A program made the position numbers and the translations under genes. DNA of 32,000 nt. Source: Candidatus Heimdallarchaeota archaeon B3_Heim (GTDB lineage Archaea; Asgardarchaeota; Heimdallarchaeia; Hodarchaeales; Hodarchaeaceae). Under the pieces are notes generated by a model. That model was not told the DNA's origin. It did not search any database and saw nothing but the letters and a program-made list of their open reading frames with translations. Below, piece by piece: positions 5,412-10,784 of this stretch (positions within the stretch are counted from its first letter, which is position 1; every line of letters begins with the position of its first letter). The stretch is taken from the NCBI GenBank assembly GCA_003144275.1, contig NJBF01000019.1, forward strand, positions 30,001 through 62,000, in the 5' to 3' direction.

Positions 5412-6902
5412 ATGGTTTCAATTAGAAGGATCCGCGTATATCGTTTTTTTAATGCAAGTGTATTTTTCTTATTAACACTCCTGCAAATGATTATAGTGTC
5501 TTGGATTTCTATCAGTCAAGTTCCAGATGAAGGATCAGATTTCACTTTCGCAAAAATTCTCGGTTTTTACATTTCAATTAATCCATTTTCAGAATTACGA
5601 TTCACTGCAGTTCTGGTAATCCTCACAGGAGGATTACAAATCCTATTATTAATCTTCTTAGTAAATGTTGTTTTTTCTAACAAGAATATGATACAAATTT
5701 TCCCACTACCCAAGAAAGGTATGGCTCACTTACCAGAAGAAGAAGAGCTAGTTAATAAAACAATAAATATTGTTTCAAATGTCGCAGAACGAACAAAAAT
5801 CAAGGTCAAAAAGATATTTGTTTATCGAAAAAGCGTACCTAATGCGTTTAGTCTGGATTTGATCCCAATTCCATTTTTGCGAAGACCTTATATCGTATTA
5901 AATACAAATGTGCTAGAAATTCTTAGTGATAATGAGATTGAAGCAGTTGTAGCACATGAACTTGCCCATGTTAAACATGGGGATAGTTTGTTTCGGCTAA
6001 TCTTGTCTATACCTCGTTTATTTCTTAATCTTGCTTATTTATTCATTTATCTCCAGGTTCTAACCGGTATCCAAAATTCACTGTTTGAAACATTTCGATT
6101 AATTGATGCAATAGAGAGAACATTATTTTTGGGATTAATATATTTAGTTATAGCAATACTAACAAAGTTTACTGTAAGGTTCTTGTATTCAGCAAATAGG
6201 CAGGCTGAATTTTTGTCTGATTATTTCGCTGCACAAGCAGTCGGATCCAATATCTTGATCAACTCGTTGATCCATCTGGGTCAAAGAAGTGAAACAATGC
6301 AAATCTTATCTCACGAGATTGAATGGCTAAATGGTTTAGCAGGAGAAAAAAAACCTTCAGCTGATTTTATGCGTAATATAAATCATCGATTCCCTCGAAC
6401 TCAGTTAAATGAGGATGTAGCCAGAGAAATGGCTCCAAGGATTTTTCTCGAGGAAAAGCTACATAGCTTAATGACAGCCTATGGATTAAAAATAGACCTA
6501 GATTATCGAGATCAGCTAATATCGCAGGCTGTTCCTTCATTACTGGAAAAAAGAATGAAGTTTTTCGAATCGATGGTTGAAAGTGATGAAGTCCTCACTC
6601 CGACTAAATTGAAGGAAAAGACAATTGATTGGAGAAAGTTTGATTCAGACGAAAGTTATTACTTAGAAGCAGAAGAACTTGATAATTTTATTGTTACATT
6701 ACTTTCTCATCCTCAAAAAATGGTATTTGAGCATGAAATCCTACAAACTCCAGAGAAAGATAGTGATCACCCAAGTTTCAGGACAAGAATCCTACAAATA
6801 TATAAAATCTTTCATCCACAAAATTACAGCAAGATTCTTGATGAGATTCTAAGTCAACAACCTGACACCACAAATTCTGAAGATATAGTGTCCAACAATT
6901 AG
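5412..6902 (+). CDS. Membrane zinc metalloprotease, M48/HtpX family, with extended C-terminus
   Basis: PNAF, EIEAVVAHELAH (HExxH), third-ligand motif RQAEFLSD and a late HPSFRTRI; several TM segments. Confidence 0.85.
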   Translation: MVSIRRIRVYRFFNASVFFLLTLLQMIIVSWISISQVPDEGSDFTFAKILGFYISINPFSELRFTAVLVILTGGLQILLLIFLVNVVFSNKNMIQIFPLPKKGMAHLPEEEELVNKTINIVSNVAERTKIKVKKIFVYRKSVPNAFSLDLIPIPFLRRPYIVLNTNVLEILSDNEIEAVVAHELAHVKHGDSLFRLILSIPRLFLNLAYLFIYLQVLTGIQNSLFETFRLIDAIERTLFLGLIYLVIAILTKFTVRFLYSANRQAEFLSDYFAAQAVGSNILINSLIHLGQRSETMQILSHEIEWLNGLAGEKKPSADFMRNINHRFPRTQLNEDVAREMAPRIFLEEKLHSLMTAYGLKIDLDYRDQLISQAVPSLLEKRMKFFESMVESDEVLTPTKLKEKTIDWRKFDSDESYYLEAEELDNFIVTLLSHPQKMVFEHEILQTPEKDSDHPSFRTRILQIYKIFHPQNYSKILDEILSQQPDTTNSEDIVSNN

Positions 6903-6904
6903 GA

Positions 6905-7939
6905 TTAAAAATATAATACCTTTTCTAACATATTAAGGATTAGTCGTTCATTTTCGGGTAAGAGAAATAATTTGACATTATTCATTCTGCGTAAATGGCC
7001 GAGTAGAGGTTTTGTCAGTTGTAAAGTTTGACGCCTAGGTGTTACAATGATTCTAACATCGTTAAATTTTCTTAAAATAGGTAAAAAGTCTCTTCCAGAT
7101 GTTGCTAATAAGTCAGATATCAGTACAAGTGTTTTTTTTCTGCTAATGACAGTAGAAAATTCTTTTTGAGCATTTAACAAAGCAGAATAAATATCAGTTT
7201 TTCCACCTGAGCTTAGTTTTATCAATTTTTTCACAATTCGAGTACTTGAATCGTGCCTATCTTTCATACTCTTAATTACAGACGGTCGTGTGTCAAAACT
7301 AATTATGCCCAGATCTTTATTTTGTAATGCTAAGCTGAATATTATTGCTGAAATAATAATAAATCTCAAGTGCTGAATAACGGAATGACTCTTATCAATT
7401 AGTAGGACTACTGTTGCTTTCCTTTCTTTTCGTTCCTCACAAACAACATGTGAGTAGTTTAAATTTTTATCCCCTGAAACCAAGAATTTAGTTACAGTTT
7501 TTTCGACATTCCATTTTCTCCCTGGCATATATGGTATTCGGATAGGATATCTTGAACGATCAATGCTATGAAATAATGATTCAGAGTGTTTTATCATCCT
7601 TGGGATTAGTTTTCGCATCAATTTTTTTTCAATTGAGGGATCTAGATGATCTTTTATTTGAAAAACTAGAGTGCTTGATTCTAAAACAAGATTAGAGTTG
7701 AAATTTTCCATCTGTATGACGTCTGCCACGACGTGAGGATATGATTCAGCTAGAATTTCAACTGCATGCAAATTTCGCGATTTGAGTGCCTGTTCTGTAA
7801 ATTCGATAGTTTTCGAAGTATCAAGCTTTTGCTGAAGTCGATATTCAAGGATAGTTTCAATCAGATCATACTGATGAGTAGGGGGAGATAATTTAATTGT
7901 GTGTTCTGATACCGCGGGCTCTCCGTCCCGCTTTTCTAG
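6905..7939 (-). CDS. VWA (MIDAS) domain reading frame, CoxE-like; probably the -1 frame portion of an AAA-VWA fusion
   Basis: MIDAS motif LLIDKSHS...GGKTD...ISD. The frame is open from 7948 to the stop at 6905, with no ATG/GTG/TTG upstream of TTG 7771 (59 start-less codons). Confidence 0.8.
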   Translation of the reverse strand, partial: LEKRDGEPAVSEHTIKLSPPTHQYDLIETILEYRLQQKLDTSKTIEFTEQALKSRNLHAVEILAESYPHVVADVIQMENFNSNLVLESSTLVFQIKDHLDPSIEKKLMRKLIPRMIKHSESLFHSIDRSRYPIRIPYMPGRKWNVEKTVTKFLVSGDKNLNYSHVVCEERKERKATVVLLIDKSHSVIQHLRFIIISAIIFSLALQNKDLGIISFDTRPSVIKSMKDRHDSSTRIVKKLIKLSSGGKTDIYSALLNAQKEFSTVISRKKTLVLISDLLATSGRDFLPILRKFNDVRIIVTPRRQTLQLTKPLLGHLRRMNNVKLFLLPENERLILNMLEKVLYF

Positions 7940-7945
7940 TTTTTT
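7884..7945 (-). promoter_or_regulatory. Candidate -1 programmed ribosomal frameshift signal (slippery heptamer plus downstream stem-loop or pseudoknot)
   Basis: Minus strand reads CCA AAA AAC TAG AAAA GCGGG ACGGAGAG CCCGC ... TCTCC. Heptamer A_AAA_AAC at 7945-7939, 7-nt spacer, stem 7931-7927/7918-7914. Confidence 0.65.
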
Positions 7946-8796
7946 GGTCTATTCTCAAAAAAAACCTCGCCAGCTATCTCATGTAAACACTCTTCGACTG
8001 ATCGAGAAATATCAAGCTGTAGTTTAATTTTACCAGAGTAAACTGCATTGATTGCTTGAATTATTTGTTTATCTTGGTTTTCTTCATTCATCAATAATTG
8101 TGTTAACTGAATAGCTGCTCGAATACTTGCACCACGTTCGAAATCAGTATTGGAACGAGTTTTTTCAGTGAATAATACACATTTGTGTATTAACTCATCA
8201 TCAGCACAATTAGTCCTTAATTTGACTATTTCCTCCGCAATTTTTCCAGTTTTATGTGTTAAATGGATTCTAATGCATCTATCAAAAAATGCTTCAGGTA
8301 ACGGATTAGTACCAATATATTCTGAAGGATTAAGGGTAAAAATTGTATAAAAATCATCTCTTGCCTTAATATTTATATATTGTGGAATTTCAATGGATCT
8401 TTCGCTGGAATCCATTGCAGAAAGTGCTCCATTAATTGATTCACTTGGCGCACGATTGACTTCATTAAAGAAGAATAATCCTCCTTTTGACATTGCCAAT
8501 GTTAGAGGACCTAGTATGAAAGATTTTTCTCCAAAACCTGATTCGATGACTAAAGACGGATCAAACCAACCACGAAGCTGTGTAATTGTTAGATTTTCAT
8601 CTCCATCAACTCTGTAAAATGGCCTTTCAAGGGCAAAAGCAATGGTTTTTGCTAGTTCTGTTTTCCCTGTTCCTGATTCTCCTTCTACAATAATACTGAT
8701 ATTTTGATCTATAGCCTTCAAAATAAGAATAATATGATCATCTAAATCAACTAAATTCTCTTTACACTTGTTAAGAATCATCTGTACTTGCATCAA
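7936..8796 (-). CDS. MoxR-type AAA+ ATPase (CoxD/CbbQ/NorQ/GvpN-like)
   Basis: Walker A GESGTGKT, Walker B-like FFFNEVNR, TLNP, LPEAFFDR and sensor II ASIR. GGTGA Shine-Dalgarno (SD) before TTG/ATG. Confidence 0.88.
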   Translation of the reverse strand: MMQVQMILNKCKENLVDLDDHIILILKAIDQNISIIVEGESGTGKTELAKTIAFALERPFYRVDGDENLTITQLRGWFDPSLVIESGFGEKSFILGPLTLAMSKGGLFFFNEVNRAPSESINGALSAMDSSERSIEIPQYINIKARDDFYTIFTLNPSEYIGTNPLPEAFFDRCIRIHLTHKTGKIAEEIVKLRTNCADDELIHKCVLFTEKTRSNTDFERGASIRAAIQLTQLLMNEENQDKQIIQAINAVYSGKIKLQLDISRSVEECLHEIAGEVFFENRPKN

Positions 8797-8837: not shown

Positions 8838-10784
8838 TTATTCAAGATCTAAAAAACTTTTTTTCAGGGAGACTAGTGCTCGATCTACATTGTAATCAAT
8901 CCATCCTTCAGATTCTAATTCTTTCATTAGACGTTCTGCAAATACAAGTTGAATTGCGACAGTTTTAGCCAATTCTTCTACTGAAGCCTGTTGGATATCT
9001 TGGAGAACAAAGAGTATCGCATATTTTGGATTTTTGGACAGATTTATCTTCAGAACTTCAACAGCTTGTTTATACTGTTCAGATTCCTCTTTCAGTTTTG
9101 TTACCTGACGATTAAGAGCTTCATTTTCCCCATTACTCTTTGTAATTTCATTCTTGAACAAATTAATTTTCTTATCTAATCTTTTATTTTCCTTATTCGC
9201 TTCAGCAAGCTGGAGTCCTAGACTCTTAATTTCTACATCGTATGTCTCTTTTTGTCGCTCAAAAGCCGCAGTTTTTGTTCTTGAACCATCAATCTCCTCC
9301 CTCAAATTTTCATGTTTCTCTCTGATGGTATCTAATTCCTTCATTGCTTCAACTACTTCCAAATTTTTTGTTTTGAGTTGAGTCTCCTGTTCGAGTATAG
9401 AAGACTTTTGTTTTTCAAAATGTATCTTTAAATTAGCCAGATTTTCCCGAGATTCATTCAAGGCTTTTTCTATTACGTCAATTCGTTCATCCTTACCTTG
9501 GATTTCCACTTGTAAGTCTTCTGTTGAGGTTACAAAAGCTCGATTTTCAGTACGTAATTTATCTTCTGCTTCTTTTGCTTCTTGAAGTCGCAATTGAATT
9601 TTTTCAATAAGTGCATCCTTATCGTCCATTTCTTGCTGTGTATGCGTTAAATTGCCTTCCACTTTTTCCCTGGAAGACTCACTTGATGCAAGTTTTTGTT
9701 TAAATTCGACTTTCTCTTTTTCTTGTAATTCAACCTGATTTTCAAGATCACTTAATCGACGATTCAGGTCTTCATTTTCCTTGATCTTCTGGTCAAGCAA
9801 AACTCTAGATTCAGATAATTCTTTTCTAATAGTTAAGGCGTCTTCAGTAGTTTCTCCTGAATCAATTAACAGATCTTCATTCTCTTTCTCCAATATTTGA
9901 TTTCTTTCTTCTAAATCAGTCATAGCAATTTTAATTTCGCTAATTTGTGAATTCAGAACTTTTTTATCCTCTAGCAGATCATCCGATTGTTTAGAAGATG
10001 CTTTTTTTACTTTCTCAATTTCATTTTGAACAACTGTTTTGAGATTTGCTATCTCGTCATTTAGCTTAATGTTTTGTTCTTTTAGAATGATATTATCTTC
10101 TGCATGACTAGTAAGAACTTGTACTTCCGAGTTCAAGTTTTCTACTTCTATATCCTTGTTTCCTATTACTGTCTGTAGTTCCTCAATTTCTAAACGTGTA
10201 GTCATCAATGTATTACCTATGACCTCATATTCCGCTTCAATTTTGTCCCTTTCTAATTTTGCCTGTTTCAATTCTCTTTGAGCTTCATCAAGTAGCTCTT
10301 GAATACGATTTATCTCTTCTAATTGATCTTGATATTTTTCAGATGTTGACCCAGTTTTTGAATTTAAAAGAGAAATTTCTGCTTCTTTTTGTTCTAATAA
10401 GATTTCCAAATTTTCAATTTTTTTTTCAAAGGGTGACGAATCTGTTGCTTGCTGACTTAAAGATTTAATCTCATTCTGCATTCTTTGAAGTTCAGATTTT
10501 GCTATAAGCGTTGAATCTGACTCTGGTTGCACAAGGTCAATATTATCAATGTCTTTCATCCCTCTTTTAGAAAATTCTGTATGTGCTTCCTTATTTAAAA
10601 TAATGATTTTCTCTTTTAAGCTTTCTATGACTTCTTCTACATCTTGCAACGTATAATAGGATTTCGGTCGTGATTGAAGTTTATTTACACTGCTTTTCAT
10701 TTCAGAGGAAATTTCATGTTCCAATCTTCGAGCTTGTTGGGCAATACTTCTTATGAAAGCAAGTTTGGGATTGTTACTGGCCAA
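8838..10784 (-). CDS. Long coiled-coil protein with C-terminal winged helix-turn-helix
   Basis: About 500 aa of E/K/L/Q-rich heptads and no Walker motifs. C-terminus KYAILFVLQDIQQASVEELAKTV...MKELESEGWIDY looks like a wHTH. TTG start with upstream GAGGG. Confidence 0.7.
   Translation of the reverse strand: MASNNPKLAFIRSIAQQARRLEHEISSEMKSSVNKLQSRPKSYYTLQDVEEVIESLKEKIIILNKEAHTEFSKRGMKDIDNIDLVQPESDSTLIAKSELQRMQNEIKSLSQQATDSSPFEKKIENLEILLEQKEAEISLLNSKTGSTSEKYQDQLEEINRIQELLDEAQRELKQAKLERDKIEAEYEVIGNTLMTTRLEIEELQTVIGNKDIEVENLNSEVQVLTSHAEDNIILKEQNIKLNDEIANLKTVVQNEIEKVKKASSKQSDDLLEDKKVLNSQISEIKIAMTDLEERNQILEKENEDLLIDSGETTEDALTIRKELSESRVLLDQKIKENEDLNRRLSDLENQVELQEKEKVEFKQKLASSESSREKVEGNLTHTQQEMDDKDALIEKIQLRLQEAKEAEDKLRTENRAFVTSTEDLQVEIQGKDERIDVIEKALNESRENLANLKIHFEKQKSSILEQETQLKTKNLEVVEAMKELDTIREKHENLREEIDGSRTKTAAFERQKETYDVEIKSLGLQLAEANKENKRLDKKINLFKNEITKSNGENEALNRQVTKLKEESEQYKQAVEVLKINLSKNPKYAILFVLQDIQQASVEELAKTVAIQLVFAERLMKELESEGWIDYNVDRALVSLKKSFLDLE

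Follow-up and report, generated by a model that had tools for sequence, protein, structure and literature searches.

In Candidatus Heimdallarchaeota archaeon B3_Heim, the open reading frame of an AAA-type ATPase runs into a reading frame for a VWA domain that lies one base back and lacks a start codon near its beginning. This raises the question of how the second frame is translated, and what part is played by a GC-rich hairpin that lies just beyond the junction. The window, i.e. the whole stretch of DNA that was analysed, comprises 32,000 nucleotides (contig NJBF01000019.1, positions 30,001 to 62,000), and all coordinates below refer to it. An earlier sequence-only reading had named a slippery heptamer, its spacer, a stem, a GGAGA loop and a TCTCC motif 25 nt further on, and all of these letters and coordinates were correct. 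The features of the locus are the following:

7936..8796, minus strand: 0-frame ORF of an AAA_5/AAA_3 (MoxR/GvpN/midasin-like) ATPase, 286 aa, ending ...PKN-TAG
7949..7951, minus strand: TAG closing the -1 (VWA) frame upstream
7939..7945, minus strand: slippery heptamer A_AAA_AAC in the X_XXY_YYZ phase of the ATPase frame; its A6 core is invariant in the alignment
7932..7938, minus strand: spacer TAGAAAA, 7 nt, of which 7938-7936 is the 0-frame stop
7914..7931, minus strand: putative stimulatory stem-loop, GCGGG (7931-7927), loop ACGGAGAG (7926-7919), CCCGC (7918-7914), identified by conservation, folding and genome-wide rarity
7884..7888, minus strand: TCTCC, 25 nt after the stem, proposed 3' strand of a pseudoknot stem 2 and judged here to be a chance complement outside the element
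6905..7948, minus strand: -1-frame ORF, a variable linker followed by a VWA domain with MIDAS motif

By inspection of the minus strand, the 3' end of the ATPase ORF reads AGA CCA AAA AAC TAG. As the TAG at 7951-7949 closes the -1 frame, any shift is limited to positions 7948-7939; the two frames overlap only there, i.e. in the A-run, and the -1 frame then stays open to 6905. In the -1 frame, ATG, GTG or TTG first occurs at 7771, after 59 codons and within conserved coding sequence. A fusion read from 7939 after the shift is predicted to have ~630 aa. A run of eight T at 7957-7964 on the same strand, 12 nt upstream of the A heptamer, forms an in-phase U_UUU_UUU (GUU UUU UUU GAG). A T5-T8 run coding for conserved Phe-Phe is retained at this position in relatives, a -1 slip on it would meet UGA immediately, and it is probably just coding sequence.

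The ATPase matched the Pfam families AAA_5 (E 5.5e-17) and AAA_3. In a search of solved structures its best relatives were AAA modules of eukaryotic midasin/Rea1 (E 5e-24, 88 bits; residues 1027-1181 of chain 6hyp_A and 1074-1228 of chain 5jcs_s), with MoxR 2r44, NorQ and CbbQ next and far behind (E 1e-4 to 7e-8). The GvpN model scored 72.8 bits, below its threshold. The VWA part matched VWA_CoxE and VWA_2 (E about 1e-9) and carries an invariant MIDAS motif (DxSxS..T..D) preceded by a linker that varies and contains indels; against the structure database the single sequence had no match, and a profile found generic VWA domains only (E about 1e-3). Identity with the chelatase subunit ChlD/BchD was considered and rejected: the ATPase fails the family models, with no Mg_chelatase domain among its Pfam matches and 30.4 bits for the BchD-ChlD model TIGR02031 (cut-off 499.55), and a search of the 94%-complete genome, in which controls were positive, found no CobN/ChlH (PF02514). 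These profile matches place the protein with the MoxR-type AAA_5 ATPases, and an AAA_5/AAA_3 ATPase adjoining a MIDAS-bearing VWA part is the layout of MoxR-type AAA+ proteins with a VWA partner. Midasin (Rea1/Mdn1) combines six tandem AAA modules and a C-terminal MIDAS domain in one chain. That six-module layout was not found at this locus, which has a single AAA module and whose strong similarity to midasin is local only. ATPase and MIDAS-bearing VWA part together make up a one-module AAA-MIDAS layout in an Asgard archaeon.

Orthologs were found in 20 of the 21 other species of the genus (within Heimdall/Hodarchaeales), with VWA identities of 48-95%; together with the locus itself they make up the 21 loci of family f1, and here as in all ortholog counts below the related species are non-independent samples. 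Near-identical loci occur in metagenome-assembled genomes labelled Candidatus Heimdallarchaeota and Candidatus Hodarchaeota. The VWA frame was -1 relative to the ATPase frame in all 21 loci and opened only 10-88 nt before the ATPase stop, the overlap lying around an A-run. In 17 of them no start codon of the VWA frame is met until 38-572 nt beyond that stop, within conserved coding sequence, while a possible in-frame start near the junction exists in four (L004, L009, L016 and L023). Independent initiation of the VWA ORF was rejected because 17 of the 21 loci have no start codon near the junction. Across the genus the pair is flanked upstream by a gene for a 648-aa coiled-coil protein on the same strand (8838-10784, minus strand) and downstream by a convergent gene for an M48-family membrane metallopeptidase (5412-6902, plus strand), which ends 2 nt from the VWA stop.

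A class-wide search found the ortholog in 27 of 31 genomes of a sister family, f3, with VWA identity of ~30% (the coiled-coil and M48 genes were not seen in the f3 flanks that were fetched). In a phylum-wide sample of 301 Asgard genomes, orthologs at E ≤ 1e-22 were confined to families f1, f3 and f6. The junction is readable in 26 f3 loci; every one of them has an in-phase NGA AAA AAA, and its 0-frame stop follows within 3-9 nt. An in-phase A_AAA_AAN heptamer is present in 21/21 f1 and 26/26 f3 loci, and a -1 shift is needed to reach the VWA frame in all 47 loci of the two families.

That the break falls in a homopolymer would be expected of a sequencing error, or of a recent pseudogene of a once-fused gene. 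Both are contradicted by the 47 loci of two families that share the -1 requirement and whose ORFs are intact and conserved on either side. Moreover, contigs from two independent metagenome studies (X1 and X2) span positions 7700-8200 with 9-12 substitutions and zero indels; these two are the ones that cover the whole site, since X3 has no depth at about 7850-8060 and X6 none at about 7920-8140. The comparative data thus refute an error or pseudogene, to which we assign practically no probability. The earlier claim that the break is not an artefact stands, borne out by the recurrence of the layout in 47 loci of two families and by independent assemblies without indel.

The hairpin itself is exceptional in its genome. 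The 18-nt patch has 15/18 G+C (genome, 36.1%), and GCGGG-N6-8-CCCGC occurs a single time in 3.95 Mb; the hairpin is more than chance would give. Genome-wide, a perfect all-GC 5-bp hairpin follows the heptamer at 5-9 nt in 3 of 9,511 runs of six or more A; the other two such sites are C71:121 (minus strand) and C81:3453 (plus strand). Folded in isolation, the hairpin has -10.0 kcal/mol, with a core-pair probability of 0.88. The 81-nt region as a whole showed no extra stability against dinucleotide shuffles (z = 0.04), a value that is uninformative because such shuffles retain the GC patch. No Rfam family matched at E ≤ 1 within 7700-8100.

Coding constraint offers little explanation for the stem. 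Its arms are read in the -1 frame as Arg-CGG, Asp-GAC and Pro-CCC (peptide Arg-Asp / Pro-Ala), codons whose shares of their families are 8.3%, 19.7% and 16.7%, respectively, in 1,203 long ORFs of this genome. All hairpin-bearing orthologs use all three, whereas neighbouring residues of the linker differ and include indels. The R-D-x-x-P-A peptide is absent from the two loci that have no hairpin, L021 and L022, and is thus dispensable. Rare codons that are kept within a variable linker, a dispensable peptide and a motif unique in the genome together argue for selection on RNA structure, and we infer that the hairpin is real and selected at the RNA level.

Within the genus, 18 of 21 species retain the heptamer in phase, its distance of exactly 7 nt from the stem and the letters of the stem itself, while the flanks vary; the only invariant columns of an 82-nt ungapped alignment of these 18 are the A6 core, spacer column 22 and CGGGA/CCCGC. 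The heptamers are A_AAA_AAC, A_AAA_AAU or A_AAA_AAA, always in X_XXY_YYZ phase. The spacer varies in sequence but is 7 nt long in all 18 hairpin-bearing orthologs, and in 16 of them the 0-frame stop comes 0-3 nt after the heptamer. GCGGGA-N6-UCCCGC is the consensus hairpin; in 16 of the 18 an A-U pair closes the loop at 6 nt. In this genome and its 95%-identical relative, G replaces U at the sixth pair, which leaves 5 bp and an alternative inner C-G pair (-10.0 kcal/mol). The stem is thus a short one, and in relatives it has 6-7 bp. Energies range from -10 to -14.4 kcal/mol (-11 to -14.4 kcal/mol outside these two genomes) and core-pair probabilities in context from 0.88 to 1.0 over the 18 hairpin-bearing loci. 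RNAalifold found this hairpin and no other structure. Stem cells are paired in 92.9% of cases, four pairs never vary, and the outermost pair is GC in seven orthologs, AU in three, GU in two and unpaired in six. The core stem is invariant in the genus and so shows no covariation there; support of this kind lies in the outer pair and in the sister family.

In f3 the structure differs: GGU..ACC enclose a 7-bp stem whose sequence is unrelated to that of f1. Among 23 distinct sequences, 90.9% of the stem cells are paired (27-58% in slid controls); compensatory changes occur at 7/7 inner pairs, and none of 500 shuffles reached the observed covariation score. A stem at the equivalent place is thus maintained by compensatory evolution. 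Its main helix begins 13 nt after the heptamer, which exceeds the classic 5-9 nt, or 8 nt when the GGU/ACC pairs are counted. The GGUGA bases after the f3 stop form the outer helix and encode Gly-Asp; a role as Shine-Dalgarno sequence for reinitiation was rejected, as most loci have no in-frame start at usable distance.

A paralogous AAA-VWA pair of the same genome (L013; contig C80, about 66.6-66.8 kb) has a corresponding arrangement with a U-run: GAU CGU UUU UUA UAA (U_UUU_UUA), an 8-nt spacer, a hairpin of 7-8 bp (UCCCGAG-N6-CUCGGGA) and a -1 frame open into the VWA part. Given this site and its hairpin, the idea that L027, a distant paralog type, has merely an ATGA overlap of start and stop was dropped.

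Colinear in-frame AAA-VWA fusions of 618-643 aa were found in three cases, in Odinarchaeota (P0001, 621 aa), in Hodarchaeales (P0002, 618 aa, with identities of 40% for the ATPase and 32% for the VWA part) and in family f6. The last of these (L045) was also considered as an ordinary two-gene pair, which was rejected because its 643-aa ORF is an in-frame AAA-VWA fusion. At the junction of each fusion, an A6-A8 run encodes Lys-Lys. A Hodarchaeales contig (L055:1-3357) carries a frameshift-type pair, GAA AAA AAA UAA UAA followed by an 8-bp hairpin (CUUUAUAG-AAA-CUAUAAAG), and directly after it an in-frame 618-aa AAA-VWA fusion. The junction of the latter contains an in-phase A8 run, at which a -1 slip would truncate the product after 17 codons, as in dnaX. 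Two Arf-family small GTPase genes adjoin these genes.

The f1 loci also provide a natural series of mutants. The hairpin is lost in none of the 17 loci with A6-A9 runs, while it is lacking or damaged in all four with A10-A13: it is absent from L021 (A11) and L022 (A10), has lost its 5' arm in L029 (A10) through a 6-nt deletion relative to the near relative L008, and is weakened to -6.6 kcal/mol by a mismatched stem in L017 (A13). These changes represent at least three independent events. In chlD cassettes, A-runs shift in E. coli with an efficiency that scales with run length (PMC3711429), and loss restricted to long runs would be expected if the hairpin makes up for the shortness of a slippery run.

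The same length effect could be read to mean that the A-run alone shifts, the hairpin being kept for RNA processing or stability, as a pause or attenuator, for protein binding, or as an antisense terminator on the plus strand. On that strand, positions 7914-7945 (the palindrome followed by TTTTCTAGTTTTTT) do score as an intrinsic-terminator-like site, which is probably the unavoidable mirror image of a hairpin next to an A-run, and the nearest plus-strand gene, that of the M48 peptidase, ends 1 kb earlier. On the coding strand, 3-4 T follow the stem in several orthologs, while no T-run follows it in the copy of this genome. A fixed 7-nt distance to an in-phase heptamer and hairpin loss only where the A-run reaches ten or more are both signatures of a ribosomal stimulator; in addition, f3 has an independent covarying stem at the equivalent place, and the U-run paralog has a stem as well. 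We therefore regard a hairpin kept for such other purposes as decidedly unlikely.

The four orthologs with A10-A13 runs and no good hairpin could also suggest that the frame changes by realignment of the RNA polymerase on the A-run during transcription. Runs of such length support efficient polymerase slippage in other systems (PMC5009743). This genome has only A6 and most of its relatives A7. Runs of six or seven A are short for productive slippage. Polymerase slippage moreover depends neither on codon phase nor on a hairpin at 7 nt, yet both are conserved, and we consider a transcriptional origin of the frame change improbable, though less firmly so for the variants with long A-runs. A ribosomal shift whose efficiency is set by the hairpin would account for these features.

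The form of the element was a separate question. Pseudoknots are common -1 frameshift stimulators, and the sequence-only reading had proposed an H-type pseudoknot in which GGAGA of the loop pairs with UCUCC 25 nt downstream. The 5-bp complement exists, and the loop lengths are sterically possible. However, when the downstream 60 nt were shuffled, 14.5% of the sequences gave a helix of at least 5 bp between loop and downstream sequence (p = 0.145), and the stem-2 columns were paired in 40% of cells in 18 orthologs, compared to 42-47% in slid controls. The best such helices in other orthologs have 3-5 bp at scattered distances, all with p > 0.1, and none is conserved in position. The 95%-identical relative has C>A at 7884 (UCUCA) with no compensating change in the loop; the same substitution, with loop and stem unchanged, was found in contigs of three runs from three studies (X1, X2 and X6, the X6 contig covering 7884). 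In the lowest-energy hairpin of this genome C7925 pairs with G7919, closing GGAGA in a 5-nt loop, which excludes stem 2. In 16 of 18 orthologs the loop moreover measures no more than 6 nt. Stem 2 thus occurs no more often than expected by chance, is not conserved among orthologs and is disrupted in the nearest relatives, so that a pseudoknot is very improbable, and the data favour a plain stem-loop. Of the pairing predicted for orthologs, stem 1 proved conserved and the f3 stem covarying, while the stem-2 columns remained at control level; accordingly, the proposal that the structure is the stimulator holds as likely for the hairpin 7 nt 3' of the heptamer, not for its pseudoknot form.

The locus thus combines the sequence-level features of a canonical -1 programmed ribosomal frameshift cassette: a phased heptamer, a structure at 5-9 nt, selection on it, and a -1 ORF without start. 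On these grounds we consider it likely that the GC stem-loop at 7931-7914 of the minus strand is the 3' stimulator of such a cassette. Ribosomes translating the AAA_5 ORF would come to A_AAA_AAC, where tRNA-Lys occupies the P site and tRNA-Asn the A site, while the base of the hairpin, 7 nt downstream at the mRNA entry channel, would resist unwinding. A fraction of them would re-pair one base back (AAA AAA) and read CUA GAA AAG CGG GAC ..., continuing through the variable linker into the VWA/MIDAS part to yield the AAA-VWA fusion. Unshifted ribosomes would stop at the adjacent TAG and release the 286-aa ATPase alone. By analogy with known systems, the free ATPase would be the product of most ribosomes and the form with a VWA/MIDAS arm that of a minority; both products may co-assemble in one MoxR-type ring that carries VWA arms.

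The closest described system is the frameshifted chlD of Mg and Co chelatases (Antonov et al. 2013, PMC3711429; Atkins et al. 2016, PMC5009743; Kuznetsov et al. 2022, PMC9227772), in which frameshifting on A_AAA_AAR joins the AAA+ and VWA halves in bacteria and archaea (Methanococcales). The logic is the same: an A_AAA_AAR-type run where the AAA+ and VWA modules meet is the site of a -1 shift, a single gene yields an AAA-only short form and an AAA-VWA long form, a structure lies downstream, fused in-frame homologs are known elsewhere, and archaea are among the hosts. The ATPase family differs, being AAA_5/AAA_3 (midasin/MoxR-like) rather than Mg_chelatase, and while the chlD structure is, according to a published review, not strongly conserved in sequence, stem letters and 7-nt spacing are here invariant across the genus (18/21 species). 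A_AAA_AAC is also the proposed shift site of the haloarchaeal virus HCTV-2 (PMC5009743).

In E. coli dnaX (tau/gamma), A_AAA_AAG is followed by a stem-loop 6 nt downstream (PMC5009743). The two loci share a heptamer of Lys codons and a simple hairpin without pseudoknot, and we liken to the present case the two products of the single AAA+ gene dnaX, which enter one complex at a set ratio. They differ in that the shift truncates the dnaX protein but would extend the protein here, in that no upstream Shine-Dalgarno-like enhancer is evident here, and in that the host is an archaeon. An AAA_5 ATPase coupled to a MIDAS-bearing VWA domain is also found in CbbQ-CbbO, NorQ-NorD, CoxD-CoxE and RavA-ViaA, as well as in eukaryotic midasin/Rea1; the partners of the MoxR-class pairs are encoded by separate genes, whereas here they are predicted to be joined by recoding.

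Among cellular archaeal genes, the -1 frameshift of Sulfolobus solfataricus fucA (Cobucci-Ponzano et al. 2006, as reviewed in PMC8211752) likewise has an A-rich slippery site and a putative downstream stem-loop, but its frameshifted form occurs in few strains of one species, compared to two families and about 47 species here. A 2021 review (PMC8211752) covers a single cellular gene, fucA, in detail and names just a few others, e.g. the Methanococcales chelatase, as presumed cases. Searches of the literature on MoxR/VWA frameshifting and on Asgard archaeal frameshifting yielded no description of the present case.

It is conceivable that the trade-off between hairpin strength and A-run length makes the cassette a tunable set-ratio device, which fixes the number of VWA/MIDAS arms per midasin-like AAA_5 ring, and that the single-module, recoded Heimdallarchaeia protein is a surviving relative of the ancestor of eukaryotic midasin; as a joint proposition we regard this as unlikely. 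For the hairpin itself the analysis gives a clear testable prediction, a stem-loop and not a pseudoknot, and adds no new principle. Programmed -1 frameshifting in archaeal cells rests on very few cases, and the locus would add a textbook cassette that is conserved in two families, in about 47 species of Heimdallarchaeia, a class of the Asgard group, the archaea closest to eukaryotes. A set of natural mutants, in which the hairpin is gone where the A-run lengthens, accompanies it, as does a covarying stem in the sister family. What would be a single recoded gene is split by annotation pipelines, which list an ATPase gene and a 'VWA' gene that has no start. Read as a single gene, the locus would extend the logic known from chlD, one gene for a motor and for the motor with its adaptor, to the MoxR/midasin-like ATPases.
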